Part shown: piece after piece, positions 4,682 to 53,312 of the stretch | Position numbering within the stretch: the stretch's first letter is position 1 | How the letters are laid out: every line of letters begins with the position of its first letter | NCBI GenBank assembly: GCA_964387845.1 | Contig: CAYLXA010000006.1 | Location: forward strand, 135,040-199,039 | Origin: an uncultured bacterium | Lineage (GTDB): Bacteria > Omnitrophota > Omnitrophia > Omnitrophales > Abzuiibacteriaceae | DNA length: 64,000 nucleotides | Direction of reading: 5' to 3' | Program-made: the position numbers and the translations under genes | Notes under the pieces: generated by a model | Told to the model about the DNA's origin: nothing | Seen by the model: only the letters and a program-made list of their open reading frames with translations | Database searches by the model: none

Positions 4682-5400
4682 ACCTCTATTCCGGAAAAAA
4701 TTTCTCAGCACCTTCTGTGCTGATTTCGCTGTGTGTGCACGCCGGTATTTTACTCATCGGCCATGCGGCAGTAGCGTATTCGTGGGTGATTCCGATTCAG
4801 ACGGAACAGAGCATCCTGCTTGAGTTAAATTCGTCGGCATCCCATCCAAAATCGTCCGCACAGAAAGCGGCGCTGCCCAAGACCGAAGAGAAGCCGCAGA
4901 ATCCTGCGCCGGAAAAGGAAAAATTAGCGGATGCGGCGCCAAAAAATTCAGGTTGGGACAACCGCGAATTTCAAGACCGGCAAGCCAGGATGGATCAAAA
5001 AATTGAACTAATCCGTGAACAAATTAGAAAAATCAAAGAAGGCCAATCCACAGGCGCCGAATTGAAAGGCTTCGAGCTGATTTCGGCAGGCCTTGATAGC
5101 GAATCGTGGCGGTCTTATTTGGCAAAGCTTCGGCGGCAAGTTCTTGAAAAATGGTATCCGATGATTCTTTCACGAGAAAGCCAATTAAAAACCAGCGAAG
5201 CGCGGCTTGATTTCTATATCGGGACGGATGGGCGAGTGGTGGCTTATGAAATTGCAGATTTAAAAGGCGTGCCTGTTTTTGGTGAAATTTGTTTGGAAGC
5301 TTTCCGGCGTGCTATTGGGACCGAAGCAAGCCTTGCGAGACAAGCGGTGAAGCCCGTCGGCAATTTCCTAAAGGTGTCGCTCTTTTTTTATTACCAATAG
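4678..5400 (+). CDS. TonB-family C-terminal domain protein
   Basis: There is an N-terminal TM, a Pro/Lys-rich linker (KPQNPAPEKEK) and a C-terminal block 'YP...DFYIGTDGRVVAYEI...' resembling the TonB_C fold. Confidence 0.45.
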   Translation: MNLYSGKNFSAPSVLISLCVHAGILLIGHAAVAYSWVIPIQTEQSILLELNSSASHPKSSAQKAALPKTEEKPQNPAPEKEKLADAAPKNSGWDNREFQDRQARMDQKIELIREQIRKIKEGQSTGAELKGFELISAGLDSESWRSYLAKLRRQVLEKWYPMILSRESQLKTSEARLDFYIGTDGRVVAYEIADLKGVPVFGEICLEAFRRAIGTEASLARQAVKPVGNFLKVSLFFYYQ

Positions 5401-5506: not shown

Positions 5507-6997
5507 ATGAAATTGTTGGGTGAGTTTTTGCAGGATATCCGGTATCAATGGAATGGCCGGGGATCTTTATTTGTTCCGGTTCATCGCGTGGTATCGGATT
5601 CGCGCATTGTTCAGAAGGGTGATATTTTCGTTGCGTTGAAAGGGCCGCTTGCGGACGGCCATGATTTTATACCGCATGCGGCAAGCCGTGGCGCAGCGGC
5701 CATTATTGCGGAAACCAAGCTGAATCCGTCAACCAATCTCCAAGACACCGCTTTTCTCCAAGTCGAAGACAGCCATTTTGCATTCAGCCGTTTACTGACA
5801 AGATTGCACGGCCTGGAGGCACGGCCCATTCAATTAATCGGCGTTACAGGCACCAACGGCAAGACAACGATTACTTACTTGATCCGATTTTTGCTGAACC
5901 AGCTTTCGGCTTGCGGCCTAATCGGAACCGTGCGCTACGAGTGGGCGAATAAATCCATCGAGTCTAAAAACACAACACCGGGCCTCGGGCAGCTCATTCC
6001 GCTTCTTTCCGACATGGTCCAAGACGGCATGAAATATTGTGTGGCTGAAATTTCAAGCCACGGGCTTGATCAAAACCGCCTTGCCGGGCTTGATTTCACG
6101 GCTGCTGTTTTTACGAACCTGACGCAAGACCACCTGGATTATCACCGCACGCTTGAAAATTATTATTTGGCAAAACGCAAACTTTTTGTATCTAAGCCGG
6201 CGCCGAAATTTTCGGCGGTTAATTTAGACGATGAGTACGGCCGGAGACTGTTGTCGGAGTTGGGCAAACGTGCCGTTAGTTTTGGTTTTGACGCGGGCGC
6301 TACTTACCGTGCTCAAAATGAAAAAGTAACGCTCGAAGGTTCCGAGTTTGATCTCATTTACCGGGGGGGAACCCACCGCGTTAAAACCAATTTACCGCTC
6401 CGGCATAATATTTATAATGTCTTAGCGGCGCTCAGCATTCTTTCAGAACTTGATTTTGCTCTGGAGCAATTAATCCCGCTGCTTCCCAAGTTTCCGGGCG
6501 TGCCTGGGCGCATGGAGCGTGCAGATGCGAAGGGCGGCGCGCTTGTGTTTGTGGATTACGCGCACACGCCGGACGCTGTTTTTAATGTGCTGTCATCGGC
6601 GCGGCCGCTTGTAGGCGGAAAAATCATCACCGTCTTGGGCTGCGGCGGCAATCGCGATAAAGGCAAGCGCCCTTTGATGGGCCGTATCGCCGGTGAAGGA
6701 TCTGACATTGCAATCGTGACGAGTGATAATCCAAGAAATGAAGAGCCGCAATCGATTCTGGACGCCATTCGGCCGGGGATAGCGGAAGGCAGGCAAGCCG
6801 AATTTATTTTAGACCGCAAAAAAGCGATTGAGCGCGCCATTGAATTGGCGGGCCCCAAAGATGTGGTGCTCATTCTCGGAAAAGGACATGAAAAGTATCA
6901 AATCGTCGGCGATCAAACGCTTCCGTTTGATGACGTTGAGGTTGCGCAAGAATGTTTAAGAAAAAAGGCGGGTAAATCACATGCTGTCCATTCCTGA
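5507..6997 (+). CDS. murE: UDP-N-acetylmuramoyl-L-alanyl-D-glutamate--2,6-diaminopimelate ligase
   Basis: Mur-ligase P-loop 'GVTGTNGKTTITYL' and the motifs 'DYAHTPDA' and 'DNPR'. The gene is first in the dcw block. Confidence 0.9.
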   Translation: MKLLGEFLQDIRYQWNGRGSLFVPVHRVVSDSRIVQKGDIFVALKGPLADGHDFIPHAASRGAAAIIAETKLNPSTNLQDTAFLQVEDSHFAFSRLLTRLHGLEARPIQLIGVTGTNGKTTITYLIRFLLNQLSACGLIGTVRYEWANKSIESKNTTPGLGQLIPLLSDMVQDGMKYCVAEISSHGLDQNRLAGLDFTAAVFTNLTQDHLDYHRTLENYYLAKRKLFVSKPAPKFSAVNLDDEYGRRLLSELGKRAVSFGFDAGATYRAQNEKVTLEGSEFDLIYRGGTHRVKTNLPLRHNIYNVLAALSILSELDFALEQLIPLLPKFPGVPGRMERADAKGGALVFVDYAHTPDAVFNVLSSARPLVGGKIITVLGCGGNRDKGKRPLMGRIAGEGSDIAIVTSDNPRNEEPQSILDAIRPGIAEGRQAEFILDRKKAIERAIELAGPKDVVLILGKGHEKYQIVGDQTLPFDDVEVAQECLRKKAGKSHAVHS

Positions 6998-8393
6998 AAT
7001 CGCCGGCGCGTGCCGCGGAAAAATCATTGGTCTGCAAACCAGTGTCCTGTCGGGCATTTCTACGGATACAAGGAATATTAAGCCGGGTTCGGTTTTTTAT
7101 GCGTTGCGCGGAAAGAATTTTAACGGCCATCAATTTTTACAAGACGCTTTCCGGAAGGGTGCCGCTGTCGCCGTCGTTGATGACCAATTTGCCAGAGCGT
7201 CATCCGAAGCCTTGTCGCAGCTCGGCGCTTCCAACACGCTTATTGTTGTTCCGGATGTTTATCGAGCGCTTTTAGATTCTGCGTGTGCTTACCGCCAAAA
7301 ATTCAAGATTCCCGTCGTAGGTATCACCGGAAGCGCCGGAAAAACGACGACAAAGGAATGTGTTCGCGCCATTTTAGGCTTGCGTTACCAAACACTTTCC
7401 AACATTGGTAATTTCAATAATCACATTGGCCTCCCGCTCAGTATTTTCGAAATGAATCAAGCAACGCAGGCCGCTGTCTTCGAGCTTGGCGCCAATAAAT
7501 CCGGCGATATTCGCGAACTTTGTGAAACAGCCCGGCCAACCGTTGGTGTTTTGACCTGTGTTCAGCCCGTTCATTTGGAGGGATTCGGCTCTCTCGACAA
7601 TATTTACAAAACCAAGCTTGAGCTTGCCGGATGGATCGCATCTCAAAAAGGTGTCATGATTATTTATGGTGACGACCCCGAGCTTTTGAAAAGAGCGAAA
7701 AAAATTTCTTCTAAACTAAAAACATTCGGCCGGGGGAAAGGTTGTGATTACCGCGTTTCAAACGAGCGGCAAGACGGTGAGCGGATTCGTTTTACAATCA
7801 ATGAAAAATTCGACTTTTCCGTGAAAGCCATGGGCCTTTTCAACGTGCTGAATTTTGCAGCCGGCATCGCGGCGGCGGCCGAATTGAAATTAGATTTGAA
7901 TGATCTTGCCCGGGATTGGCACGACTTTCAGCCGGCAGCCAATCGGTTTGAAATCGAACGTATGGAAAATCCCAAGGTTGTGTTTGTCAAAGATTTTTAT
8001 AATTCCAACCCGGTTTCATTTCAGATTGCTTTGCAAGCATTTGAAGCGCTTCCATCCGAAGGCAGGAAGATCATTGTGGCGGGTGATATGCTCGAGCTTG
8101 GTCCGGATGCAGCGAAATATCATGGGGAGTTGGGAGAGCAAGCCGGCAAAAGCCGCGCGAACGCTTTCATTTATATCGGAAAATACGCAGAGCCCGCCGC
8201 AGCCGCAGCGCGGAAGCTCAACCATCAGATTCAGATTGCGACATTTTCCGACAATCAACATGCAGCCGATTATTTATCCGGATTTTTACGTGACCGCGAC
8301 TGTGTGTTTATGAAAGCTTCGCGCGGCATGAAGTTTGAAGAAATTTTGAATGCACTTAAAAATGTTCCGGATTTATCGTTAACACATCCGTAA
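6981..8393 (+). CDS. murF: UDP-N-acetylmuramoyl-tripeptide--D-alanyl-D-alanine ligase
   Basis: 'GITGSAGKTTTKE' P-loop. It overlaps the murE end by 17 bp. Its size and position are those of MurF. Confidence 0.9.
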   Translation: MLSIPEIAGACRGKIIGLQTSVLSGISTDTRNIKPGSVFYALRGKNFNGHQFLQDAFRKGAAVAVVDDQFARASSEALSQLGASNTLIVVPDVYRALLDSACAYRQKFKIPVVGITGSAGKTTTKECVRAILGLRYQTLSNIGNFNNHIGLPLSIFEMNQATQAAVFELGANKSGDIRELCETARPTVGVLTCVQPVHLEGFGSLDNIYKTKLELAGWIASQKGVMIIYGDDPELLKRAKKISSKLKTFGRGKGCDYRVSNERQDGERIRFTINEKFDFSVKAMGLFNVLNFAAGIAAAAELKLDLNDLARDWHDFQPAANRFEIERMENPKVVFVKDFYNSNPVSFQIALQAFEALPSEGRKIIVAGDMLELGPDAAKYHGELGEQAGKSRANAFIYIGKYAEPAAAAARKLNHQIQIATFSDNQHAADYLSGFLRDRDCVFMKASRGMKFEEILNALKNVPDLSLTHP

Positions 8394-8406
8394 GGAAAGG
8401 GGAAAC

Positions 8407-9495
8407 GTGTTTTATTATTTTCTTTATCCGCTGAGTGATCATTCAATTTTGTTTAACGTTTTTAAATACATCACATTCCGCTCGGTCGGGGCGAGCGTGA
8501 CCGCCTTTTTGTTCTGCATTTTTATGGCACCGGCCGTTATTGATTGGCTGAGCCGTTTGTGCGTGGTCAATTCCACAAAGCGCGAACATGCGCAATCGAT
8601 TCATAAATTCTATGAGCATAAAGGCAAAGTGCCGACAATGGGCGGCGTTCTGATCGTCGGCAGCATTCTTCTTTCGTGCCTTTTGTGGGGCAATTTCGGA
8701 AACGCGTTTTTTAATTTATCGCTGATTGTCTTGATTTTGTTTGCCGCTGTCGGTTTTTTGGATGATTACATTAAATTGAAATCTAAAAGCTCAAGAGGCC
8801 TAAGCGCGCGCGTCAAATTGGCGGGACAATTGGGCGCTGGTTTACTGCTCGCAGTTTATCTTTTTTGGGATCCTGCAGTGGATACTAAATTATTTATTCC
8901 GTTTTTCAAGACTGCCACCGTGATGCTGGGCTGGCTTTATATTCCGTTTGTGGTGCTCGTGCTGGTCGGTACATCCAACGCCCTTAATTTAACCGATGGG
9001 CTTGACGGGCTTGCGATCGGCTGCTTCACCATCGCAGCTGGTGTTTTTGGGCTTATTTGCTATATCGTGGGCCGTATCGACTATGCCACTTATTTAGAAG
9101 TCCGCTATATTGCCCAAGCAGCGGAACTGTCCATATTTTGCGCGGCCCTTGTCGGCGCGGCCCTTGGTTTTCTTTGGTATAATTCCTATCCTGCGAGTAT
9201 CATGATGGGCGACACAGGCTCTCTTGCACTTGGCGGCGCGTTGGGCACGATTGCCATTTTAGTCAAAAAGGAAGCTATTTTAATCGTCGTCGGCGGCGTT
9301 TTTGTGTGGGAAGCGCTTTCTGTTATTTTGCAGGTGTTTTGCTATAAAAATTTTAAAAAGCGGATATTTTTAATGTCGCCCTTTCATCATCACCTACAAC
9401 TGAAAGGCTGGCCCGAATCCAAAGTGACGATCCGGCTGTGGATTGTCGCGTTTATTTTGGCGCTTCTCGGACTCAGCATGCTGAAATTGAGATGA
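8407..9495 (+). CDS. mraY: phospho-N-acetylmuramoyl-pentapeptide transferase
   Basis: A polytopic membrane protein carrying 'NLTDGLDGLA' and 'HHHLQLKGW' MraY signatures. Starts with GTG. Confidence 0.9.
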   Translation: MFYYFLYPLSDHSILFNVFKYITFRSVGASVTAFLFCIFMAPAVIDWLSRLCVVNSTKREHAQSIHKFYEHKGKVPTMGGVLIVGSILLSCLLWGNFGNAFFNLSLIVLILFAAVGFLDDYIKLKSKSSRGLSARVKLAGQLGAGLLLAVYLFWDPAVDTKLFIPFFKTATVMLGWLYIPFVVLVLVGTSNALNLTDGLDGLAIGCFTIAAGVFGLICYIVGRIDYATYLEVRYIAQAAELSIFCAALVGAALGFLWYNSYPASIMMGDTGSLALGGALGTIAILVKKEAILIVVGGVFVWEALSVILQVFCYKNFKKRIFLMSPFHHHLQLKGWPESKVTIRLWIVAFILALLGLSMLKLR

Positions 9496-10790
9496 GCTCA
9501 ACTCAAGAAGCGAAAACCGGTTCTGAAACGGCCAACACCGCTGTGAAGTTGGTCGGCGAGTCTGTTTCTGTCCTTGGGCTTGGAAAAAGCGGATTTGAAA
9601 GCGCGAAGTTTCTTGCCAAGCGCGGCGTTCAAGTGTTTGCCAGCGAATCCAAATTCTCGCCGGAATTACTCAAGCGCAAAGAAGAGCTCGAACAGCTTGG
9701 TGTCCGCGTTGAAATCGGAAAACATTCCATCCGATCGATCGCGCGGGCCGATCGTGTCATTATTTCTCCCGGGATCCCGCCGTCTGCGCCGGTCTATGAA
9801 TCGCTTCGGAAAAAGAAAATCCCGATTTGGAGCGAAATCGAACTGGCATATCAATTTTGCCCGGCACCCATTATTGCCGTGACCGGGACGAACGGAAAAA
9901 CGACCGTCACATCATTAATTGCGCGAATTTTATGCGCCAATCAGTTTCATGCGATTTCCTGCGGCAACATTGGCAACCCGCTGATCGGTGAAATCGAAAA
10001 TTTAACGGATCAATCCATTGCTGTCACTGAGGTTAGTTCGTTTCAACTCCAAAACATTGATCAATTTCGTCCCTATATCGGTATCGTGCTTAATCTCACC
10101 GTTAATCACCTAGACTGGCACGCCAATTTTGCAGAATACGCGGCAGCCAAATGGAACTTGTTTAAAAATCAAAGGCCGCACGATTATGCGTTTTTAAATG
10201 CCGACGATATTGAAAGCATGCACCGCGCGGATTTGATTCAATCGCAAAAAGTTTATTTCAACGGCGGCGAGCACGAAAACCCGAATTTTGCGGCGTGCCT
10301 TGCAGTGGCGAATTTGTACCGGCTGGATGATCACAAAACGCGAAAAATCATCGATGAATTTCCCGGCATTGAGCATAGGCTCGAAAAAGTGCCGTCCCGG
10401 GATGGTTTTCGGTACTTTAATGATTCGAAATCAACGACAATCGCATCGCTCGGTTGGGCGCTTGACCGGATGAAAGACAAAGCCGTATTAATCATGGGCG
10501 GTAAGCATAAAGGCGGTGATTTTTCGGTCTTACGCGATAAAATAAAATCAAAAGTTCGTTTTTTGGTTTTAATCGGAGAGGCCGCGCCGGTTTTGGAGAA
10601 AGCCTTTGGAAGAATTGTTAAAACCATGACGGCGCCCAATTTGGAACAAGCGGTCCGGCAGGCGCGTGCGGCGGCTTGCGCAAGTGACGCCATTTTATTT
10701 TCGCCGGCGTGTGCAAGTTTTGATATGTTCGAAAATTACGAAGACCGGGGCCGGAAGTTTAAAGCCATTGTTCAAAGCTTTCAGAAATAA
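9492..10790 (+). CDS. murD: UDP-N-acetylmuramoylalanine--D-glutamate ligase
   Basis: 'VTGTNGKTTVTSL' P-loop. ATG at 9492 overlaps the mraY stop (ATGA). The ORF-track start at 9438 is probably an upstream extension. Confidence 0.88.
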   Translation: MSSTQEAKTGSETANTAVKLVGESVSVLGLGKSGFESAKFLAKRGVQVFASESKFSPELLKRKEELEQLGVRVEIGKHSIRSIARADRVIISPGIPPSAPVYESLRKKKIPIWSEIELAYQFCPAPIIAVTGTNGKTTVTSLIARILCANQFHAISCGNIGNPLIGEIENLTDQSIAVTEVSSFQLQNIDQFRPYIGIVLNLTVNHLDWHANFAEYAAAKWNLFKNQRPHDYAFLNADDIESMHRADLIQSQKVYFNGGEHENPNFAACLAVANLYRLDDHKTRKIIDEFPGIEHRLEKVPSRDGFRYFNDSKSTTIASLGWALDRMKDKAVLIMGGKHKGGDFSVLRDKIKSKVRFLVLIGEAAPVLEKAFGRIVKTMTAPNLEQAVRQARAAACASDAILFSPACASFDMFENYEDRGRKFKAIVQSFQK

Positions 10791-10830
10791 AACCGGCCAA
10801 CATTAATCTTCATGATTATTTGAGATCCTC

Positions 10831-11940
10831 ATGTCACAAGAATCCAGAAGCATTTTTATTGTGATGCTTCTTTTAATTGCCGTCGGCGTGATCATGATCT
10901 ACAGCGCTAGCGCGGTGTTTGCGGACCAATTGTTCGGAAGTTCCACTTATTTCCTGCGCCGTCAGCTTTTTTATTTAATTTTGGGCCTTCTGGCGTTCGG
11001 TGTTAGTTACTATGCAAACCCCGAATTTTTAAGAAGTCACGCAAAGGGGCTCATGATTTTCGCTTTTTTCATACTGCTCCTCGTTTTTATTCCCGGGCTC
11101 GGCCATTCGGCGGGCGGTGCGCGGCGCTGGATCGGTTTCTCGTTTTTTACATTCCAACCTGTTGAATATGCGAAACTGGCGGTTTGTTTGTATCTATCGG
11201 ACTACCTCACCCGAAAAATGAAATTGATGGTAACGGGGGACCATATGGTTTTAGTTCCGCCTATCGCAATACTGCTTTTTATGCTCTCACTTTTAATCGC
11301 GCAGCCTGATCTTGGTTCAACTATTTTTGTTTTAATGATCGCAGGCATTTTGTTCATTTTGGCCGGCATCCGGCTGAGATATATTGCCATGGCAGTGGTT
11401 CCGGTCGTTTTTGCCATCGTTATTTTGATCATCAAGGCGCCGTACCGGATGAACCGCATCGCGGCTTTCTTGGATCCCTGGAAGGACCCGCGCGGCACGG
11501 GATTTCAAATTATTCAATCGTTTCTTGCGTTTTCATCCGGGGGCGTGAAGGGTGTAGGGCTCGGCCAAAGCACCCAAAAATTATTTTATTTGCCGCAAAG
11601 CTACACCGATTTTATCTTTTCAATTATTGCCGAAGAGCTTGGTCTTATCGGCGCGTTGTTTGTGGTTTCGCTCTACGGTTGTTTTTTTGTGATGGGCGTC
11701 CGGATTGCCAACAAAACACACGACCCGTTTTACCGCCTCTTTGCTTATTCACTGGTGCTGATTATTACACTGCAGGCTTTGATCAATATTCTGGTGACAA
11801 CCGGGCTTGTGCCGACCAAAGGGCTTCCGCTTCCGTTCGTCAGTTACGGCGGTACTTCACTTATTTTTAATATGATCGCAGTCGGTCTTCTGCTGGCGAT
11901 TGACCGTCATATTGTTTATAGATCTCCCGCTTATCGTTAA
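10831..11940 (+). CDS. ftsW: SEDS-family peptidoglycan glycosyltransferase / cell division protein FtsW
   Basis: A 10-TM SEDS protein placed between murD and murG as in canonical dcw clusters. Confidence 0.85.
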   Translation: MSQESRSIFIVMLLLIAVGVIMIYSASAVFADQLFGSSTYFLRRQLFYLILGLLAFGVSYYANPEFLRSHAKGLMIFAFFILLLVFIPGLGHSAGGARRWIGFSFFTFQPVEYAKLAVCLYLSDYLTRKMKLMVTGDHMVLVPPIAILLFMLSLLIAQPDLGSTIFVLMIAGILFILAGIRLRYIAMAVVPVVFAIVILIIKAPYRMNRIAAFLDPWKDPRGTGFQIIQSFLAFSSGGVKGVGLGQSTQKLFYLPQSYTDFIFSIIAEELGLIGALFVVSLYGCFFVMGVRIANKTHDPFYRLFAYSLVLIITLQALINILVTTGLVPTKGLPLPFVSYGGTSLIFNMIAVGLLLAIDRHIVYRSPAYR

Positions 11941-11944
11941 CGCT

Positions 11945-13033
11945 ATGAGAGAGGCGCCAAAACATTCGATAGTGATTACAACCGGAATGACGGGAGGGCA
12001 TTTTTTCCCGGCTTTGAGTTTTGCGGAAAGTTTTGCAGCCGCACATCCTGATTTTGAAGTTCATTTTCTGCTTCCGCGCGAGAATAAACGATTTGATCTG
12101 GCACGCGTGAATCCTAAAATTTCCTTTCACCCGATTCCAGTCGAGCCTTTTCCGCGCGCTTTTAGTTTAAAGCTCATGTCTTTTTTGATACACTATCTGC
12201 GTTCTTTGAGAGCTACTTTTCAATTTTTTTCCCGCAGAAAACCGGCGGTAATTGTAAGTTTCGGGAGTTACGGCTCATTTCCAGGTGTTTTATGTGCTTG
12301 GGTTCTTGGAATTCCCGTAGTCTTGCATGAACAAAACCGGATTGCGGGCTGGGCAAATCGTTTGGCGTCTTTTTTAGCAACGTATGTGGCGGTATCGTTT
12401 TCTGATACGAGCGGGATCGTGTTGAAAGGCAAAATCAAAAAAGTCGGATATCCGCTTAGAAAAGAAATTTTGGAAGCGGCTCATAGAAAACAGAGCGAGG
12501 CAGCAAACAGCCGGCCGGCGAATATTCTCGTTTTGGGAGGTTCACAGGGTGCCTCAGCCATCAATGAGGCTGTTTTAGAGCTCTTCGATAAATTATCTGT
12601 TGAGGAAAAACAAAAATTAGCCGTAATACATATCACCGGCGAGGCGCAGCATTCCGAGGTTTTGAAGCGCTATCAAGCGAACGGCGTGAAACATCAAGTG
12701 TTCGCGTTTTCGGATGAAATGCATCGCTGGTACGAGCAGGCGGATCTTGTGATTGCGCGTGCCGGCGCAGGAACGGTCTTTGAGTTGATCGAATTTAATT
12801 TGCCGTCGGTTTTGATTCCGTATCCGTTTGCACATTCGCATCAATTCAAAAATGCGCAATATTTGGAAGAAAAACGGATGGCTATGATTATCGAACAAAC
12901 GGAATTAACAGCGACGCGGCTTCACAGTGCAATTTTTGAAATGTTGAAGCGTTTTGATCAAAAGGACAAGTCGCCGCGCGTGATGCAAAATCCGAATCAA
13001 AATTTTATTCAGTTGGTTGATCAATTGATTTAA
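11945..13033 (+). CDS. murG: undecaprenyldiphospho-muramoylpentapeptide beta-N-acetylglucosaminyltransferase
   Basis: N-terminal 'ITTGMTGGHFFPAL' G-loop, GT28 fold length, dcw position. ATG at 11945 is preferred over the track's TTG at 11900. Confidence 0.88.
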   Translation: MREAPKHSIVITTGMTGGHFFPALSFAESFAAAHPDFEVHFLLPRENKRFDLARVNPKISFHPIPVEPFPRAFSLKLMSFLIHYLRSLRATFQFFSRRKPAVIVSFGSYGSFPGVLCAWVLGIPVVLHEQNRIAGWANRLASFLATYVAVSFSDTSGIVLKGKIKKVGYPLRKEILEAAHRKQSEAANSRPANILVLGGSQGASAINEAVLELFDKLSVEEKQKLAVIHITGEAQHSEVLKRYQANGVKHQVFAFSDEMHRWYEQADLVIARAGAGTVFELIEFNLPSVLIPYPFAHSHQFKNAQYLEEKRMAMIIEQTELTATRLHSAIFEMLKRFDQKDKSPRVMQNPNQNFIQLVDQLI

Positions 13034-13058
13034 GAGCAGTCAACCATGAGGGCGTCCT

Positions 13059-14471
13059 ATGACACAGTTACAGCAGGCGGTTAAGGACATTCAAAGTCTT
13101 TTACAGCCCGGAAAACGGGCTCATTTAATCGGTGTGGGCGGCGTCGGCATGAGTGCGCTTGCCAAGGTTTTGAAGCATATGGGCCTTGCCGTCAGCGGAT
13201 CCGATATGAAAGCAGGCCGCGTCGCTTCCGAGCTCACTTCCGGCGGCATTCAGATTTTCAACGGGCATGATAGCCACAACGTTTCCAATTGCGATTTCAT
13301 TATTTATTCTTCCGCCATCCGTGTTGACAATCCCGAAAGGCGCCAGGCGCTGATTAGCGGTATTCCGTCTTTTCATCGCGCAGAAGTTTTGTCGAATATC
13401 ATGAACCGGGGTATTTCAATCGGCGTTACAGGCACGCACGGTAAAACAACCACATCGGCCCTCATTAGCTTTTTGCTTCAAGCTGCAGGTTTACGCCCGA
13501 CTTGTTTGGTGGGTGGTAATATTTTAAATTTCGGATCCAACACGCTGCTTGGCGATCCCAATCTTTTTGTCGCAGAAGTGGACGAGAGCGATAAAAGCCA
13601 TTTGAATTTTAAGCCTGATTTTGCGGTTTTGACCAATCTCGAAGAAGACCACATGGATGTCTATCAGGATTTTGCGAATCTGCAGCTCGCATTTTCCCAG
13701 TTTGTCGAAAACATTCAGCACTCGGGACATGTGATCTTTTCGGCGCACGATTCAAACCTAAAGGAGATTACGCGCATTACAACCCGCAAAACGGATTACG
13801 GATTGTCGCGCAATTACGGTTTTGGAGCAGAAGAAGTTGTGTTGGAGGGCTTTCAGTCGCGCTTCCGGCTTTACGAAAAAGGTGAATTTATTTCAACGGT
13901 TTCGCTAACCGTGCCGGGCATGCACAACGTGCTGAATGCGCTTGGCGCAATCGCGACGCTCAGAACCTTTGGAATTCCGTTCAGAAGTTTCGAAGCAGCG
14001 CTCCCCAAATTTCGCGGTGCCGGACGTCGGCTCGAGGTGAAGCTTGAGCATCGCGGCTGGACCGTTATTGATGATTACGCGCATCATCCCACGGAAGTGA
14101 TTGCGTCATTGAAAGCAATTCGGACATTGGGCAAACCGACGACGGTGGTGTTTCAGCCGCACCGGTATTCGCGCATGCAGTATCTCGGAGAGTCGTTTTC
14201 TAAAGCATTTCATCATGCAGATTGCCTCATTTTAACGGATATTTACAGTGCAAATGAAGAGAATGCAAAAGGAATTGATGTGAGCGACTTGTATGAAATG
14301 GTAAAAAGTGCCGGGCATCCGAATGTTCGCATGGTAGCCCGCGATCAATTAATCGATCATTTGCTCCAGGACTCCGCAGGCGAAGGCGTGGTTGCCTTTC
14401 TCGGAGCCGGAGATATCGGAGAGGTGGCCTGTGAATTTGCCGAACGGCTTCGTGGTTCCGATCCAGAATAA
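13059..14471 (+). CDS. murC: UDP-N-acetylmuramate--L-alanine ligase
   Basis: 'GVTGTHGKTTTSAL' P-loop and an N-terminal Rossmann 'GVGGVGMSALA'. Confidence 0.9.
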   Translation: MTQLQQAVKDIQSLLQPGKRAHLIGVGGVGMSALAKVLKHMGLAVSGSDMKAGRVASELTSGGIQIFNGHDSHNVSNCDFIIYSSAIRVDNPERRQALISGIPSFHRAEVLSNIMNRGISIGVTGTHGKTTTSALISFLLQAAGLRPTCLVGGNILNFGSNTLLGDPNLFVAEVDESDKSHLNFKPDFAVLTNLEEDHMDVYQDFANLQLAFSQFVENIQHSGHVIFSAHDSNLKEITRITTRKTDYGLSRNYGFGAEEVVLEGFQSRFRLYEKGEFISTVSLTVPGMHNVLNALGAIATLRTFGIPFRSFEAALPKFRGAGRRLEVKLEHRGWTVIDDYAHHPTEVIASLKAIRTLGKPTTVVFQPHRYSRMQYLGESFSKAFHHADCLILTDIYSANEENAKGIDVSDLYEMVKSAGHPNVRMVARDQLIDHLLQDSAGEGVVAFLGAGDIGEVACEFAERLRGSDPE

Positions 14472-15366
14472 CGTTCCGCTTTGCCGGTTTTCAACTTTGC
14501 AAATCGGCGGCCCGGCTGCCTATTTTGCAGAGCCGGATACGCGCGAAGCACTATTACCGCTTCTGGAATTTCAAAAACAGGAAAATCTCCCGCTTCTTGT
14601 AATCGGCCGCGGTTCCAATATTTTATTTTCCGACGAAGGATTCCCAGGGCTTGTTATTTCGCTTCGGAAATTTGAACTCGAACGCATTCAATTCAATCCC
14701 AAAGGCCTAGTAAAAGTTTCCGCCGGTATGAGCCTTTTTCGATTGTCCGCATTATGCCAGGAGCAGGGAGTGAGCGGGCTTGAATTCATTTGCCACATTC
14801 CCGGCACTGTCGGCGGTGCTTGCGCCATGAATGCCGGTTTCGGCCGCGCCGGGGTTCATTATCAGGAAATCAAAGACGTTCTAAATTCGGTCACGGTTTT
14901 GGATGCGGCAACAAGCAAATTGCGTGTGATTCAACGCAGTGAAATTGATTTTCAATACCGCAAAAGCAGTCTCGAGCGGGAAATTGTTTTAGATGCCACG
15001 TTCCAATTAAAGCCATCCACACGCGAGGCGGTGCGAGATGAAGTAAAAGCCAACTTTGCTTATCGGAATTCCGTGCAGGATCTGCGCTATCCGAGCGCCG
15101 GATCCGTTTTTAAGAATCCGAAAAAACCCACGGAATCAGCCGGGAAGCTGATCGACCGCGCAGGGCTTCGCGGAACGCGGATCGGCGGCGCCATGATTTC
15201 GGAAAAACACGGCAATTTTATTTTAAACGTCGGAAATGCAAAGTCAGCCGACGTTTTGCAGCTTATTGATTTGGCAAAATCTCGGGTTCTTGAGCAGTTT
15301 GGTATTGAGTTAGAGCCCGAAGTAAAACTGATGGTGCCCGGCTTGTCGTCTGCGTGCGCCGTTTAA
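14431..15366 (+). CDS. murB: UDP-N-acetylenolpyruvoylglucosamine reductase
   Basis: 'VPLCRFSTLQIGGPAAYF' FAD-binding N-terminus and a MurB C-terminal domain. GTG at 14431 follows a GGAGAGG RBS. The gene overlaps the murC 3' end. Confidence 0.8.
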   Translation: MNLPNGFVVPIQNNVPLCRFSTLQIGGPAAYFAEPDTREALLPLLEFQKQENLPLLVIGRGSNILFSDEGFPGLVISLRKFELERIQFNPKGLVKVSAGMSLFRLSALCQEQGVSGLEFICHIPGTVGGACAMNAGFGRAGVHYQEIKDVLNSVTVLDAATSKLRVIQRSEIDFQYRKSSLEREIVLDATFQLKPSTREAVRDEVKANFAYRNSVQDLRYPSAGSVFKNPKKPTESAGKLIDRAGLRGTRIGGAMISEKHGNFILNVGNAKSADVLQLIDLAKSRVLEQFGIELEPEVKLMVPGLSSACAV

Positions 15367-15396
15367 TGCAAACTCCACAACATTGACAGGGAATTC

Positions 15397-16326
15397 GTGA
15401 AATCGTTTAATCAAATCTGCGTACTTTTGGGAGGTAACTCGCACGAACGTGAAATTTCAATCCGTTCTGGATCTGCAGTGGCCGAAGCGCTTGTCCGCTC
15501 CGGGTTCGAAGTCTCGCAGCTTGATGCTAAAAACGGCTGGCGTGAAAAACTCAAAAATAAAAAACCTGACGCAGTATTTGTGGCGCTTCACGGTACCGGC
15601 GGAGAAGACGGCGAGGCGCAAAAAGTTTTAGAGGGCCTCGGAATCCCTTATGTCGGTTCCAGCCCTGATGCAAGTTTGGATGCTTTTGATAAACTCCGCT
15701 CCAAAAGAATATTCGAGAAAGAATCCATTCCGACCCCGGCCTGGGCCCTCATCACCGGAAAAAATTGGAAAAAGAAAATTGAAGAGCTGAAAATCCCGAT
15801 TTTTATCAAGCCGATTGCCGATGGTTCCAGCATCGGCGTTGAATTAATCGAATCTGAAATTGAACTAGAGCCGACGATCGAAAAGAGCCTTAAACAGTAC
15901 GAATCCATCATTGTTGAAACTGCAATCCAGGGAAGGGAGTTTACGGTCGGTATTTTAGGAGACCAGGCGTTGCCCGTATTGGAAGTGAGGCCGAAGCGCC
16001 GTTTTTATGATTACACAGCCAAATATACGAAAGGGCAGACGGATTATCTCGTCCCGGCACCGATTGATGAGAATTTTGCCGTCAAGCTTCAAGCGCTTGC
16101 GTTAAAAACGCACTTAGCTTTGGGGCTTCGCGATTTTTCAAGAGTTGACATGATTGTTGATCTGGCCGGAAATCCGTATATTTTAGAGGCCAATTCAATT
16201 CCGGGTTTTACTGAAACAAGTCTTTTGCCAAAAGCGGCCCAAGCAGTCGGAATTAGTTTTGATAAGTTGTGCGTGAAATTAGTAGAGCTTGCGTATCAGC
16301 GAGTTGCGGGGAAGGTTTATGCGTAA
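15397..16326 (+). CDS. ddl: D-alanine--D-alanine ligase
   Basis: ATP-grasp protein with 'ICVLLGGNSHEREISIRSG' N-terminus and a 'EANSIPG' C-terminal motif. GTG start. Confidence 0.88.
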   Translation: MKSFNQICVLLGGNSHEREISIRSGSAVAEALVRSGFEVSQLDAKNGWREKLKNKKPDAVFVALHGTGGEDGEAQKVLEGLGIPYVGSSPDASLDAFDKLRSKRIFEKESIPTPAWALITGKNWKKKIEELKIPIFIKPIADGSSIGVELIESEIELEPTIEKSLKQYESIIVETAIQGREFTVGILGDQALPVLEVRPKRRFYDYTAKYTKGQTDYLVPAPIDENFAVKLQALALKTHLALGLRDFSRVDMIVDLAGNPYILEANSIPGFTETSLLPKAAQAVGISFDKLCVKLVELAYQRVAGKVYA

Positions 16327-17128
16327 GCGTTCAAACCGCGGAAAATCAAAAAATATTTTCGTCCGTCTTTTTGAAAAAATATTTCTTTTGTTTTTCTTGC
16401 TATGGAAAAGCATCCCAATCCTAATTATTGCCGCAATTTTTTACTTCTCATTTTTCGGTGTCAAAGATTTGTTAAGTGCGGATTCTCATTTTCAAATCGC
16501 CAGTCTTAAAATTTTTCCGCGCGGCATATTGACTGATCAGGAATATCAGGCGCTCGAGCGGCGTTCAACCGGTGTTAATTTACTCAAAGCCGACCTCCGG
16601 ACGCTCAGGGCAATGATTGAAACAAATCCCAAAGTTAAGCAGGCGGATGTGGTCCGAAAACTTCCAAATGAACTGGAAATTACGCTGACGCCTCGAAAAG
16701 TGGCCATGCAGTTTCGGACGTCGCCCCGCGGCCCGTTCTACACGCTCGGCGAAGATGCGGTCGTGATGTCGTCGGCAGATTCCCGGGATTTATCGCTCAT
16801 TGAATTCTCGAATTTTGACTATGCCGCGAAACGCCTTTCGCCTCTTGACCGTTATTCCGATCCTTCTTGGCACAAGCTCCAGTCGATTTTGGACTCTTTG
16901 AAAAAGCATGACGCAACAAAGCGGGAAAAGGTTGACCGCGTATCAGTTGATAAAACCGGAAATTTTACGGTGTCGTTTGTAGGCGGTCTTGAGCTTGTAC
17001 TGCGTGATACGAGCGATATGACAAACCAAAAAATGATAGCGCTCGGGAACTTGTTGGCGTCACCGGAACGGGACTTGATTGCTTATATTGATTTGCGCCA
17101 CCTTGACATTATTTTGAAGTACAAATAA
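16319..17128 (+). CDS. ftsQ: cell division protein FtsQ/DivIB (POTRA domain)
   Basis: A basic N-terminus, a single TM, and a periplasmic POTRA-like region. It lies between ddl and ftsA. ATG at 16319 overlaps the ddl end. Confidence 0.7.
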   Translation: MRKRSNRGKSKNIFVRLFEKIFLLFFLLWKSIPILIIAAIFYFSFFGVKDLLSADSHFQIASLKIFPRGILTDQEYQALERRSTGVNLLKADLRTLRAMIETNPKVKQADVVRKLPNELEITLTPRKVAMQFRTSPRGPFYTLGEDAVVMSSADSRDLSLIEFSNFDYAAKRLSPLDRYSDPSWHKLQSILDSLKKHDATKREKVDRVSVDKTGNFTVSFVGGLELVLRDTSDMTNQKMIALGNLLASPERDLIAYIDLRHLDIILKYK

Positions 17129-17146
17129 AACAACGCACCGTTTAGC

Positions 17147-18385
17147 ATGAACCAAAAGCCGCTTATCCGCTACATTCTGCACATCGGTACCGTCAAAATA
17201 TCGTTCCTGAAAATACTCTTTAAACCGACCGGCCAGCGCGAAATTTTAAAAACCGTAACCTGCAGTTCGGACGGTTTTGACAAAGGAGTCGTGACAGACC
17301 TGTCCAAGGCTGCCGAAAGCATTCACCAGGGGCTTAAAGTGATTACGAGCGGTTCTAACGAGTCGCTGATTCCATGCCGGGTCGTCGTGTCAAACGGCCA
17401 TCTTAAAAACTATACCTATTCGAGTTCGCTTTATTTTTACGGCAATTCGCATGAGCTCAGCATGAAGGATGTCCGCGATGTGATTGCCCAAACCCGCAGT
17501 GTAGCCACAATCCCGCTGAACGAAATGATTATCCAGGCTATTCCGCAGGAATTTTTGGTAGACAATATGGCTGGTATTTCAAATCCGATCGGCCTCGAAG
17601 CGACGCGGCTTGGCGTTACGTTACGGCTTTTTACGACCGAATATAGTATTTATCAAAATTTATTAAAAGCAACCGAGCGCGCCGATGTAGACGCGCGGGA
17701 TATCGTACCGACCTCTCTGACATCCGCTCACGCCGTCCTCACACAGGAAGAAAAGCAGGAGGGTGTAATCTTGATTGATGTGGGCGGTCACGCAACACAT
17801 GTGGTTGCGTTTCAAAACGGCATTTTGCAGGAATCAAAATCATTTCAGGATGGATCTGAGGTGATTACGGATGCTCTTGCGCGAAAATACAATCTCAAAC
17901 TGGATGAAGCGCGCCGCGTTAAAGAAACCTATGCTTCTTTGTCAAAGAAGCCTGAATTTGCCGACGAGCTTATCCCGATTTGCGACAAGGAAGGGCATAA
18001 AAGCTCACATGTTTCAAAATCGGAATTGCAAACCGAAATTGAAAGTTCTCTTTCAATTTTTACGCACAAACTGCTGGACCCGGCGCGTCACATGATTAAA
18101 AAGCACGCACCAATTACGCAAGTTGTCATGACAGGCGGCGGCGCGAAGCTGGACGGTCTTTTAGAGTTTGTTCAGCAGGAGCTTGGCTCGAGCGTGCGGC
18201 TCGGTGTTGCGAAGAATATTTTTGGAGATCAAAAAGTCATTAATGATCCCGCTTTCGCGGGCGCCATCGGCGCTTCGGACTATTCTAGTTTTATCATGGA
18301 TCCCATCACGGTTCTCAACCAATCCGGAAACGCGGTTTATAAAATCCTCAACACGGCCAAACGCTGGGTTTCCGAATACTTCTGA
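17147..18385 (+). CDS. ftsA: cell division protein FtsA (actin-like ATPase)
   Basis: 'ILIDVGGHATHVVAFQNG' phosphate-2 motif and 'VVMTGGGAKLDGLLEFVQQELGSSVRLG' adenosine motif. Confidence 0.85.
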   Translation: MNQKPLIRYILHIGTVKISFLKILFKPTGQREILKTVTCSSDGFDKGVVTDLSKAAESIHQGLKVITSGSNESLIPCRVVVSNGHLKNYTYSSSLYFYGNSHELSMKDVRDVIAQTRSVATIPLNEMIIQAIPQEFLVDNMAGISNPIGLEATRLGVTLRLFTTEYSIYQNLLKATERADVDARDIVPTSLTSAHAVLTQEEKQEGVILIDVGGHATHVVAFQNGILQESKSFQDGSEVITDALARKYNLKLDEARRVKETYASLSKKPEFADELIPICDKEGHKSSHVSKSELQTEIESSLSIFTHKLLDPARHMIKKHAPITQVVMTGGGAKLDGLLEFVQQELGSSVRLGVAKNIFGDQKVINDPAFAGAIGASDYSSFIMDPITVLNQSGNAVYKILNTAKRWVSEYF

Positions 18386-18451
18386 AGTTTGTTTTCCTCT
18401 TTATATTTAGCTGACCGACTGCTATAATTCACACCTTATTAACCGCTTATC

Positions 18452-19576
18452 ATGACTGCTACTATTATGACTCAAGACATACGCAAACTTCCGCTGCACA
18501 ACACGCACGTTCAGCTGGGCGGTAAAATGGGCGCTTTCGGCGAATGGGAAGTGCCGCTTTACTATTCAAGCATTCTCGAAGAGCATGCAGCCGTCCGTGA
18601 AAAATGCGGGATTTTTGATATTTCTCACATGGGCGAAGTTTGGTTTAGAGGTTCGAATGCGCGCAAAGCGCTCAATTCTTTGCTTCCGGGGAAAATTGAA
18701 AAGCTGGTGCCCGGCAAAGCCGTTTACAGCCCGATGCTGAATGAGCGAGGCGGCATTGTGGATGATTTGATTGTTTCGCAGATTGACGCGGATTCTTATC
18801 TCGTGGTTGTCAACGCCGCCAACGTGGAAAAGGATTACAATTGGTTTCTGGCGCACAATCCGTTGAAAGCTGAAATTGTTAACGAAAGCGATGCGTTCGG
18901 TTTGTTAGCGGTTCAGGGCCCCGAAAGCGCAAAAGTCGTGTCGCAAGTTTTTTCAGACGATATTCTCAAGCTTCCGTATTACCACATCCAAAAATCGGAC
19001 ATTCCCTGGAAGGGAAGTTATATTTCCCGGACCGGTTACACGGGAGAAATCGGCTTTGAAATTTTTCTGGCCCAAAAAAATTTAAAACCCGCGTATAATA
19101 CATTTCTTGAAATTGGAAAATCGTTCGGAATCAAACCCATTGGATTTGGCGCGCGCGATACTTTGAGGCTTGAGTCCTGCATGCTGCTGTACGGGCAAGA
19201 CATGAATGATGACACCTCGCCGCTCGAAGCCGGGCTTGAATGGACTTTGGATCTCGAGAAAGATTTTGTCGGAAAAGATCCGCTCGTCAAATTAAAAACG
19301 CAGGGAATCGCGAAGAAGCTTGTCGGATTTGAAATGATTGACCGCGGACTTGCGCGCCATGACTATTCTGTTTTTAAAAACGGAAAAATAATCGGAAAAG
19401 TAACGAGCGGAACGTTTGCACCGACTTTGAAGAAAAATATCGGTCTAGCCTATGTCGATACGCCGGAATCTGCGGTCGGCAATGAAATTCAAATTCAGAT
19501 CCGAGACCAACAGGCGAAAGCCAGAATTGTGAAAACGCCTTTTTACAAAAAAAATACCACGAAGGAGATTGTATGA
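18452..19576 (+). CDS. gcvT: glycine cleavage system aminomethyltransferase T
   Basis: 'LHNTHVQLGGKMGAFGEWEVPLYY' and a GcvT fold, followed by gcvH-gcvP. Confidence 0.9.
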   Translation: MTATIMTQDIRKLPLHNTHVQLGGKMGAFGEWEVPLYYSSILEEHAAVREKCGIFDISHMGEVWFRGSNARKALNSLLPGKIEKLVPGKAVYSPMLNERGGIVDDLIVSQIDADSYLVVVNAANVEKDYNWFLAHNPLKAEIVNESDAFGLLAVQGPESAKVVSQVFSDDILKLPYYHIQKSDIPWKGSYISRTGYTGEIGFEIFLAQKNLKPAYNTFLEIGKSFGIKPIGFGARDTLRLESCMLLYGQDMNDDTSPLEAGLEWTLDLEKDFVGKDPLVKLKTQGIAKKLVGFEMIDRGLARHDYSVFKNGKIIGKVTSGTFAPTLKKNIGLAYVDTPESAVGNEIQIQIRDQQAKARIVKTPFYKKNTTKEIV

Positions 19577-19962
19577 ATTTCCCGAAAGAACTGCACTATA
19601 CCAAAACACACGAATGGGCTAAGAAAAACGCGGATTCGGTGACGGTCGGCATCAGCGATTACGCGCAGCATGAAATCTCGGACATTGTGTTTGTTGAGCT
19701 TCCGAAAGTCGGCCAAAAAGTGGCGCAGGGGAAGGCGATTTCTGTGGTAGAATCCGTGAAAGCCGCGTTCGATATTTATGCCCCGGTGTCGGGCACGGTG
19801 AAATCGATTAACACAACGCTGGAATCGGACCCGTCGATTGTTAATCGCGACTGTTATGGTAACGGCTGGTTTTTTGAAATCACGCCGGATAACGCGGGTG
19901 AATTAAGTTCGCTTTTATCTGCCGAACAATATGAGAGTTTTTTAAAGGAAGCTGCGCACTAA
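19573..19962 (+). CDS. gcvH: glycine cleavage system H protein (lipoyl carrier)
   Basis: Lipoyl-lysine motif 'VESVKAAFDIYAPVSG'. 129 aa. ATGA overlap with gcvT. Confidence 0.9.
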   Translation: MNFPKELHYTKTHEWAKKNADSVTVGISDYAQHEISDIVFVELPKVGQKVAQGKAISVVESVKAAFDIYAPVSGTVKSINTTLESDPSIVNRDCYGNGWFFEITPDNAGELSSLLSAEQYESFLKEAAH

Positions 19963-19965
19963 TTT

Positions 19966-21309
19966 ATGCATTATTTTCCGCTCACGAATGAAGAACGCCA
20001 GGAAATGCTCGACACGATCGGTGTCGAGAATTTTGGCCAGATTTTAACGCCGATCCCTGCCAAACTTAAAAATCCCGCGCTGGATATTCCGCCGCATTTG
20101 AGTGAAATCGAAATTAACCGTTTGCTCGGTGATTTGGCGGCGAAGAACCTGCACTGCAAAAATCGTTCATCATTCTTAGGTGCGGGTGCCTATGATCATT
20201 TTTCACCTTCGATTGTTAACGAGATCATTTCCAGAAACGAATTCTACACGGCTTACACGCCGTATCAGGCAGAGGCATCGCAGGGGACTTTGCAGGCGAT
20301 CTTTGAATACCAGAGTTTAATTTGCGAGCTGACCGGCATGGATGTGTCCAATGGCTCGCATTATGACGGCGCCACAGCGCTTGCGGAAGCCGCGCTCCTC
20401 AGTTTAACTAAAACACAGCGCGCCAAAATTTTAATCGCGCGATCGGTTCATCCGGATTATCGGAGAGTCGTGCAAACCTATGTCGAAAGACCGGGACATC
20501 AAATCGAGGAAATTCCGTTTCTGGCGGACGGTAATCTCGATAAGGAATTCTTGAAGAAGAAACTAACGAATGAAGTTGCGTCCGTGATTATCGCAAGCCC
20601 GAACTTTCTGGGATTGGTCGAAGATTTGGAAGGGCTTTCGGATCAAATTCATCAAAACGGGTCACTTTTTATTTTGGTTTCGAATCCGTTGTCGCACGGT
20701 TTTTATAAAACACCGGCGGAACTCGGCGCTGACATCAGCTGCGGTGAAGGGCAGCCGCTTGGGATTCCGATGAGTTACGGAGGTCCCTGGCTCGGGTTTT
20801 TTGCTACAAAGCGCGAGTTGGTCCGTCAAATTCCGGGTCGTCTTGTGGGTCTTACAAAAGATTCGGATGGAAAACGCGCATTTTGCCTCACCCTTCAGGC
20901 CCGCGAGCAACACATCCGCCGTGAAAAAGCCGCTTCCAATATTTGTACCAACCAAGCGCTTTGCGCGCTTGCGGCTTGCGTTTATATGGCTGCAATGGGC
21001 AAAGCCGGTATCCGACAGGTCGCGGAGCTCAATATTGAAAATGCGGTGTATTTACGCCGGGAAATCGCGAAATTAAGGGGGTTTAAAATTCTGACCGCCG
21101 GCCCCATTTTCAATGAGTTCAGCGTGATTTGCCCCAAGCCCGTTTCGGATATTAATCGCGAGCTTTTAAATCAAGGCATTATCGGCGGCTACAATGCTTC
21201 TAAGAAATACGATGAACTCGAAAACACGATGGTTATTTGTGCGACAGAAACTAAAACCAAAGAAGAGCTGGACCGGTTTGTGAAAGTGCTCGGGCAGGTT
21301 GCGTCATGA
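19966..21309 (+). CDS. gcvPA: glycine dehydrogenase (decarboxylating) subunit 1
   Basis: P-protein N-terminal half ('FLGAGAYDHF', 'YTPYQAEASQG'). Confidence 0.9.
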   Translation: MHYFPLTNEERQEMLDTIGVENFGQILTPIPAKLKNPALDIPPHLSEIEINRLLGDLAAKNLHCKNRSSFLGAGAYDHFSPSIVNEIISRNEFYTAYTPYQAEASQGTLQAIFEYQSLICELTGMDVSNGSHYDGATALAEAALLSLTKTQRAKILIARSVHPDYRRVVQTYVERPGHQIEEIPFLADGNLDKEFLKKKLTNEVASVIIASPNFLGLVEDLEGLSDQIHQNGSLFILVSNPLSHGFYKTPAELGADISCGEGQPLGIPMSYGGPWLGFFATKRELVRQIPGRLVGLTKDSDGKRAFCLTLQAREQHIRREKAASNICTNQALCALAACVYMAAMGKAGIRQVAELNIENAVYLRREIAKLRGFKILTAGPIFNEFSVICPKPVSDINRELLNQGIIGGYNASKKYDELENTMVICATETKTKEELDRFVKVLGQVAS

Positions 21310-22829: not shown

Positions 22830-22839
22830 GAATCTTTCA

Positions 22840-23592: not shown

Positions 23593-23602
23593 CAAGCTTG
23601 AT

Positions 23603-32566: not shown

Positions 32567-32572
32567 GATCTA

Positions 32573-35702: not shown

Positions 35703-35706
35703 TGTA

Positions 35707-37491: not shown

Positions 37492-37496
37492 AAATA

Positions 37497-38135: not shown

Positions 38136-38278
38136 GCTCACCAGTCTTCTTGCCGCAAAATTATTACGATTCTCTATTAATATTTCCGGTATGCTGCCGT
38201 TAAGTAATACCACAACGCTTTTATTGAAAACCAACGTTTATTTTATAAAGATTTATCACATAAAAAGGAGTTCACAGT

Positions 38279-53295: not shown

Positions 53296-53312
53296 GGATT
53301 TTAAAATCCGAT

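Follow-up and report, generated by a model that had tools for sequence, protein, structure and literature searches.

A shortened murE-to-ftsA gene cluster and probable FtsZ-less division in Omnitrophota

Few bacterial partnerships are as conserved as that of FtsA and FtsZ. We analysed 64,000 nucleotides of contig CAYLXA010000006.1 (assembly GCA_964387845.1), hereafter the window. It carries a cluster of genes for division and the cell wall (dcw) that starts with murE and stops at ftsA. By its protein relatives, the source organism is a member of Omnitrophota, a phylum of the Planctomycetes-Verrucomicrobia-Chlamydiae (PVC) superphylum. We consider it likely that the cluster was shortened by detachment of its 5′ module and loss of ftsZ, and that cells divide without FtsZ, perhaps by a mechanism centred on FtsA.

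A division and cell wall cluster without its usual ends

The block spans positions 5507–18385. Its eleven genes lie head to tail on the + strand and were identified using Pfam. They are murE (5507–6997), murF (6981–8393), mraY (8407–9495), murD (9492–10790), ftsW (10831–11940), murG (11945–13033), murC (13059–14471), murB (14431–15366), ddl (15397–16326), ftsQ (16319–17128; POTRA_1 domain) and ftsA (17147–18385; 412 amino acids, SHS2_FTSA and FtsA domains). Neighbouring genes either overlap by 4–41 bp or are separated by gaps of 4–40 bp. Briefly, the overlaps are 17 bp for murE/murF, 4 bp for mraY/murD (ATGA), 41 bp for murC/murB and 8 bp for ddl/ftsQ. Identical gene calls were made for an independent Logan assembly (run SRR15237813) that carries the exact FtsA protein. 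The block encodes the lipid II gene set (MurC-F, MurB, Ddl, MraY and MurG). The SEDS polymerase FtsW, together with FtsQ and FtsA, is kept in the same tightly coupled unit.

The canonical cluster has the order mraZ-rsmH-ftsL-ftsI-murE-murF-mraY-murD-ftsW-murG-murC-murB-ddl-ftsQ-ftsA-ftsZ. The window contains the collinear, single-strand core murE-murF-mraY-murD-ftsW-murG-murC-(murB)-ddl-ftsQ-ftsA. Canonical clusters, represented here by control loci L034–L089 and Verrucomicrobium spinosum, have the same murE-to-ftsA internal order and the same tight coupling. However, the window has neither the four 5′ genes nor the 3′ ftsZ, whereas every control has both ends. Pfam identified no mraZ-rsmH(mraW)-ftsL-ftsI module directly 5′ of murE, in the 5.5 kb upstream. 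Likewise, no MraZ, Methyltransf_5 (RsmH), FtsL or Transpeptidase domain was found in any open reading frame (ORF) of the 64-kb window. Immediately 3′ of ftsA, where ftsZ is usual, we found gcvT (18452–19576, + strand) after a gap of 66 bp. No ORF in the window has a Tubulin/FtsZ domain according to Pfam. A tblastn search of the window with FtsZ from E. coli and B. subtilis also returned no match. In the control loci from other phyla, the same search recovered FtsZ without exception.

A first-pass annotation, made from the letters of this DNA, had described eleven contiguous and coupled dcw genes, with gcvT in place of ftsZ 66 bp after ftsA. Pfam and the junction coordinates agree with both statements. 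It had also noted TonB-like and hypothetical genes upstream instead of mraZ-rsmH-ftsL-ftsI, and this is confirmed by Pfam, NCBIfam and positional homologues. The limits that it gave for the murE-to-ftsA stretch (5507–19576) were right at the start. The end needs correcting; position 19576 is the end of gcvT and ftsA stops at 18385.

The shortened cluster is conserved across the clade

To place the cluster in context, five Omnitrophota MurD proteins were aligned and a MurD-anchored scan of JGI metagenome contigs was made. The scan yielded 80 loci in two groups. Omnitrophota-type loci have a MurD at least 40% identical to that of the window and upstream genes for HIT, HD and HD-GYP proteins. Control loci, from other phyla, have a MurD that is 35–39% identical. 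Two loci (L025 and L086) were reassigned to the Omnitrophota-type group according to upstream synteny. Loci with at least 1.3 kb of readable DNA after ftsA were used to test for ftsZ, and those with at least 1.2 kb before murE to test for the 5′ genes. Queries for tblastn searches with MraZ, RsmH, FtsL and FtsI were taken from control locus L034 and verified using Pfam.

Downstream of ftsA, ftsZ was found in none of the 23 Omnitrophota-type loci, which represent about 14 lineages with FtsA proteins 25–100% identical to that of the window. All controls (19/19) had ftsZ 72–290 bp after ftsA. Upstream of murE, tblastn detected mraZ, rsmH, ftsL or ftsI in 0/17 Omnitrophota-type loci; the genes for HIT, HD and HD-GYP proteins mostly occupy this position. 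The order mraZ-rsmH-ftsL-ftsI-murE was present in each of 23 controls. Since the controls were all positive, the assay detects flanking division genes when they are present. Exact-protein look-ups of FtsA relatives with 83%, 51%, 44% and 40% identity gave the same picture: murF-to-ftsA order was retained and there was no ftsZ. The ftsA-gcvT junction was found again in independent Logan, JGI, ENA and NCBI assemblies. Judged by gene order, the shortened cluster is an old and conserved trait of the clade, not a local rearrangement.

Block order was constant across the Omnitrophota-type loci, except for L006 and L007, in which the cluster has no murB. In these loci, from the RIFCSPLOWO2_12_FULL_44_17 lineage, ddl directly follows murC (8123–8250). 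The gene after ftsA encodes a large protein of Ig-like repeats on the reverse strand.

The window derives from a member of Omnitrophota

The source organism was placed using FtsA, LepA and the TIGR04138 family. All 10 named matches to FtsA with at least 40% identity belong to 'Candidatus Omnitrophica'. Identity falls sharply beyond these relatives and is at most 35% for other phyla. For LepA (35605–37491), the protein search lists the best 120 out of 8000 candidates with shared words. Among the matches listed, 32 of the 34 with a named taxon were Omnitrophica or Omnitrophota, at approximately 70–75% identity. The TIGR04138 profile matched an ORF at 23558–23983 (+ strand) with 138.4 bits, compared to a cut-off of 60. 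The ORF encodes 141 amino acids, has no Pfam match and belongs to the Minf_1886 family of hypothetical proteins, which is restricted to PVC bacteria. TIGR04138 is a marker that places Omnitrophota in the PVC superphylum and excludes the ftsZ-bearing Ratteibacteria (Seymour et al. 2023, PMC10066038, Supplementary Note 1). Gene order is also shared with GCA_001804285.1 (Omnitrophica bacterium RIFCSPLOWO2_12_FULL_44_17). The window has a G+C content of about 47% and nearly all of its genes are on the + strand. By these sequence relationships, the organism belongs to the phylum Omnitrophota and the PVC superphylum. In relatives L001, L003 and L009, an ORF of similar size fills the slot of the TIGR04138 ORF, in the interval between the genes for lipoate ligase and uvrD.

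Published genomes of the phylum lack ftsZ

Our direct search for ftsZ covers 64 kb of the genome, and genome-wide absence is taken from phylum-level literature. Seymour et al. (2023, PMC10066038, Supplementary Note 1) analysed 421 Omnitrophota genomes and described a phylum without an ftsZ homologue. The sole exception encodes a protein 89% identical to an archaeal one, which the authors put down to a contaminated bin or a very recent gene transfer from archaea (PMC10066038). A second genome, OLB16, encodes ftsZ but is not a member of Omnitrophota (PMC10066038, Supplementary Note 2). Among the 'Omnitrophica' genomes of Rivas-Marin 2016 and Pende 2021, OLB16 alone has FtsZ, and its ftsZ adjoins ftsA. 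Pende et al. (2021, PMC8178401) found FtsZ in 0/4 Omnitrophica genomes and FtsA in three of them. The three are Ca. Omnitrophus magneticus, RIFOXYB12_FULL_50_7 and WOR_2 SM23_29. In a figure legend of the same paper, Omnitrophica are one of the phyla without FtsZ, and loss of FtsA is recorded for Planctomycetes and Chlamydiae.

The KEGG Orthology (KO) table of PMC10066038 was used for its entries on two Omnitrophota genomes. Within these entries, both genomes list K03438 (rsmH), K03925 (mraZ), K03587 (ftsI), K03589 (ftsQ), K03569 (mreB) and K03466 (ftsK). One of the two lists K03588 (ftsW) and K03590 (ftsA). Neither entry lists K03531 (ftsZ) or K03586 (ftsL). Because mraZ, rsmH and ftsI are listed for these two genomes, they are probably encoded elsewhere in the genome of the window organism. 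Hence, mraZ, rsmH and ftsI appear to have been relocated and ftsZ appears to have been lost.

These observations bear on what the first-pass annotation had proposed. Its suspicion of PVC membership is borne out by the relatives of FtsA and LepA and by TIGR04138. Its suggestion that the organism may divide without FtsZ, as some PVC members do, gains support from that placement, the conserved synteny and the phylum literature. The absence of ftsI, rsmH and mraZ that it implied holds at the locus. It does not extend beyond it, if the KO entries for the two Omnitrophota genomes are a guide.

That ftsZ is absent from Omnitrophota is already published, though only as a table and a supplementary note. 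The genomes of these two studies are like that of the window in phylum, TIGR04138, presence of FtsA, FtsQ and FtsW, and in that FtsZ was not found. However, PMC10066038 and PMC8178401 give presence and absence only; they contain no picture of gene order and no report of the subdomain conservation described below. The signature in gene order is a murE-ftsA block with HIT/HD/HD-GYP and TonB- or OmpA-like genes on its upstream side and gcv or BatD genes on its downstream side. Neither this signature nor the domain pattern of FtsA appears to have an earlier description in the literature that we searched.

The retained FtsA is intact and unusually constrained

The FtsA of the window passes the TIGR01174 equivalog model of NCBIfam (224.8 bits; cut-off 175.85). 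The FtsA-specific SHS2 insert, subdomain 1C, is matched by PF02491 at residues 85–161, and PF14450 is also matched. The alignment with the solved structures 7q6d, 7q6f and 7q6g spans residues 11–380 and is free of large deletions. The protein ends with WVSEYF, an amphipathic tail of the type expected for a membrane-targeting helix. At sequence level, the terminus AK(R/N)W(I/V)xEY(F/L) is conserved in 45/45 Omnitrophota FtsA homologues. The arrangement of subdomains 1A, 1C, 2A and 2B, followed by an amphipathic tail, is the same as in FtsA of E. coli, Vibrio and Xenorhabdus (7q6d, 7q6f, 7q6g) and Thermotoga maritima (1e4f, 4a2a). Conversely, the window protein is only about 25–30% identical to FtsA of other phyla and its phosphate-1 and phosphate-2 motifs are substituted. 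The Omnitrophota protein has no FtsZ partner known in its phylum.

Conservation is uneven along the protein. In deeply diverged pairs drawn from the 45 Omnitrophota homologues (42% identical overall), 1C is 69% identical, compared to 36–37% for 1A, 2A and 2B. For a mixed control set the corresponding values are 42% for 1C and 29–35% for the other subdomains. In control loci from other phyla, the conservation of 1C does not exceed that of the other parts of FtsA. Relaxation of the FtsZ-binding 2B subdomain relative to 1A and 2A was tested in Omnitrophota FtsA and none was seen. FtsA of model bacteria uses the surface of 1C to contact both adjacent FtsA subunits and downstream proteins of the divisome.

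The nucleotide-binding site also differs. The phosphate-1 motif of Omnitrophota FtsA (residues ~11–18) reads yiGT or hIGT, with Y or H replacing D/E. In the phosphate-2 motif (residues ~208–220), DIGGGT is replaced by GG.aTh, and the window protein has DVGGHATH. The adenosine motif GGGa is retained. This pattern suggests altered nucleotide binding or hydrolysis in Omnitrophota FtsA.

Division without a Z-ring and competing explanations

We favour the interpretation that the cell most likely divides without a Z-ring, yet in a way that depends on peptidoglycan. Peptidoglycan is presumably still made, because the window encodes a complete Mur pathway together with MraY, MurG and Ddl. The septal machinery would be retained as FtsW and FtsQ, with FtsI encoded elsewhere. 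The conserved amphipathic tail at its C terminus could hold FtsA at the membrane. There, FtsA may organise or activate the FtsQ/FtsW-FtsI septal synthase directly, using the unusually conserved 1C. Possible helpers include MreB and, from nearby genes, envelope proteins of the SPOR, TonB and OmpA types. A more specific proposal is an 'FtsA-only' divisome, which we put forward tentatively, as somewhat doubtful. With FtsZ lost, filaments of membrane-bound FtsA would form the cytoplasmic scaffold, positioning and activating FtsQ/FtsW-FtsI through 1C. FtsA would have a re-tuned nucleotide site, and TonB/TolA-like or OmpA-like envelope proteins, from genes at the head of the cluster, would couple constriction of the outer membrane.

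Several points weigh against division without FtsZ centred on FtsA. We infer the FtsA-centred mechanism from sequence. For this organism, the absence of ftsZ beyond the 64 kb read directly rests on literature for the phylum. An unrelaxed 2B fits a retained partner as well as a new one. Finally, a PVC survey (iScience 2025) describes dcw genes as 'highly conserved' in Ca. Omnitrophota and does not list ftsZ separately.

Some of the same points would favour a local relocation, with canonical ftsZ, ftsI, ftsL, rsmH and mraZ elsewhere in the genome and ordinary Z-ring fission. The inspected stretch is 64 kb, the only well-established role of FtsA is to anchor FtsZ, and the 2B subdomain is not degraded. 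Parts of the cluster can disperse, as the KO entries for two Omnitrophota genomes list ftsI, rsmH and mraZ, outside the block. The iScience survey also counts Omnitrophota among the phyla with retained dcw genes. However, no bona fide ftsZ was reported across genomes of the phylum (Seymour 2023, PMC10066038), four Omnitrophica genomes had no FtsZ although three had FtsA (PMC8178401), and the sole positive genome, OLB16, was misclassified. K03531 is not in the KO lists seen for the two genomes, and the separation of ftsA from ftsZ is ancient and uniform (0/23 loci). We therefore regard relocation as unlikely. A divergent protein with a tubulin/FtsZ fold, invisible to sequence models, could instead have replaced FtsZ as the partner of FtsA. 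In its favour, FtsA is kept with an intact and constrained 2B, and there are several proteins without a family match in the window and related loci. Yet none of the unannotated ORFs adjoining ftsA is GTPase-like and no candidate is conserved beside ftsA across lineages. This explanation is, in our estimation, quite improbable.

FtsA might also have left division altogether. It would then be either a relic or an actin-like protein turned to another task, pilus or secretion machinery for example, with MreB and FtsK organising division as in Chlamydia. The altered nucleotide-binding motifs are compatible with this, as is a gene for a PilT-like ATPase after ftsA in two divergent lineages; mreB and ftsK are among the KO entries of the two Omnitrophota genomes. 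Against this, ftsA directly follows ftsQ in every lineage, and the protein passes the FtsA equivalog model and retains a membrane-targeting tail. Moreover, 1C is under very strong constraint, and in a relic it would not stay 69% identical across deeply diverged lineages. Hence, we think a role outside division very improbable. Lastly, the contig is metagenome-assembled, and assembly or binning could have made a chimeric junction, either between ftsA and gcvT or between the TonB-like gene and murE, with loss of the flanking division genes. The junctions are repeated in SRR15237813, SRR10398028, SRR25730292, Ga0268299, ERZ978390 and OBEQ/ORMF records, and composition is even across both boundaries. 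Because the junctions are replicated across samples and pipelines, an artefact is effectively refuted.

Loss of ftsZ with retention of ftsA would set the window apart from other PVC bacteria. Chlamydiota and Planctomycetota, of the same superphylum, have also lost ftsZ, have a fragmented dcw cluster and keep genes for peptidoglycan precursors (in Chlamydiota, Phycisphaerae and Planctomycetales). However, they have lost ftsA too. The joint loss of ftsA and ftsZ is not seen in the window, where ftsA is intact and strongly constrained. The window also differs in that its murE-to-ftsA order is fully collinear.

A phylum without FtsZ that keeps a constrained FtsA, FtsQ, FtsW and a full peptidoglycan pathway is a test case for what FtsA does beyond anchoring the Z-ring. 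It is equally a test case for how septal wall synthesis is organised without a tubulin homologue. The gene-order signature and the FtsA pattern can be used as a quick marker of Omnitrophota contigs and as a guide to experiments. If true, the 'FtsA-only' divisome would give PVC bacteria a third way to divide without FtsZ, distinct in mechanism, and would be a natural experiment on the capacity of FtsA without FtsZ.

Genes flanking the block

The genes described here upstream of murE are on the + strand. Pfam identified a HIT hydrolase (650–1156), an HD phosphohydrolase (1160–2275) and a GAF/HD-GYP protein resembling cyclic di-GMP phosphodiesterases (2288–3955). This trio is also 5′ of murE in L011–L016, L018, L025, L033 and L086 (48–87% identity) and in none of the control loci from other phyla. 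Two genes without Pfam matches follow. The first (4217–4681) encodes a hypothetical protein of 154 amino acids with an N-terminal hydrophobic segment. The second (4678–5400) encodes a TonB/TolA-like protein of 240 amino acids, with weak TolA/TonB matches below the NCBIfam cut-off. Homologues at the TonB-like position in L012 (5208–5942), L013 (5296–6039) and L024 (2902–3699) match Pfam TonB_2. The same slot encodes a coiled-coil protein of the OmpA family in L025 (4414–5118), L033 (4638–5357) and L086 (4766–5479). Hence, in every lineage examined, an envelope protein fills the slot before murE, the usual site of ftsL-ftsI. It is conceivable that this protein is linked to constriction of the outer membrane.

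The 66 bp spacer between ftsA and gcvT (18386–18451, + strand) is where ftsZ usually starts. It contains a promoter-like site at 18400–18428, consisting of TTTATA, 17 nt and TATAAT preceded by TG, which is a consensus match only. No terminator-like hairpin was found in the spacer. From gcvT, a + strand block of about 10 kb (18452–28572) separates ftsA from the gene for BatD. According to Pfam and NCBIfam, it comprises gcvT, gcvH, gcvPA, gcvPB and genes for lipoate-protein ligase, the TIGR04138 protein, a uvrD-type helicase, an M48 peptidase and a TPR/MA-peptidase protein. Next, at 28696–38857 (+ strand), Pfam identified genes for BatD, a TPR/SH3 protein, trpB, trpA, ruvX, an M16 peptidase, rpe, lepA, lepB and a SPOR protein.

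The gcv block follows ftsA in lineages with an FtsA at least 51% identical to that of the window (L003/L011, L009/L012 and L027). Lineages with FtsA 40–42% identical have no gcv block and the gene for BatD is directly after ftsA. In L008/L013, ftsA is followed by the BatD-to-SPOR series, in the same order as at 28.7–38.9 kb of the window. Matches to BatD also lie directly after ftsA in L014–L016, L018 and L023. The gcvT-to-MA-peptidase block (18452–28572) is variable among lineages and therefore is not a recent displacer of ftsZ.

Other genes occupy this position in some loci. A PilT-like type II/IV secretion ATPase (Pfam T2SSE) is encoded directly after ftsA in L025 (19026–20132) and L033 (18668–19777); in L033, gcvT comes after the ATPase gene. 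A 402-amino acid ORF after ftsA in L086 was considered as a divergent FtsZ and rejected. Its product is secreted, rich in Gly and Pro and of low complexity, with no relative in the PDB.

Two proteins with SPOR domains, which bind septal peptidoglycan, are encoded downstream of lepB (38279–38857 and 39782–40642, + strand). The distant relative L008 has a SPOR protein at the same position 3′ of lepB. The LepA ORF (35605–37491, + strand; 628 amino acids) overlaps rpe by about 100 bp, and homologues of 593–596 amino acids cover 94% of it. The true start of LepA is probably around 35 codons downstream of the listed one.

Other features of the window

Genes for cyclic di-GMP signalling are dense in the window. 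As well as the HD-GYP protein (2288–3955), there are two PilZ proteins and a DUF520 (YajQ-like) protein; these other sites are at 40642–41004, 41007–41510 and 41835–42275. A c-di-GMP-I riboswitch at 56868–56958 (+ strand; 76 bits) overlaps the nominal start of the first ORF downstream. The riboswitch precedes genes for paralogous proteins with FGE-sulfatase domains (56939–58726 and 58612–60408).

Giant repeat proteins have been reported for Omnitrophota. The last ORF (60481–64000, + strand) has at least 1173 codons and runs off the 3′ end of the window. Its product has an N-terminal hydrophobic segment and long arrays of the 13-amino acid repeat G(V/I)NW(D/T/S)D(L/I)xxLSK(A/S), with periods of 39 and 78 bp in the DNA.

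A tRNA-Ala(CGC) gene (51929–52001) is followed by secretion-type genes at 52423–56691 (+ strand). These encode an ExeA-like AAA ATPase, a protein similar to type II secretion system (T2SS) protein C, a secretin and a TPR protein.

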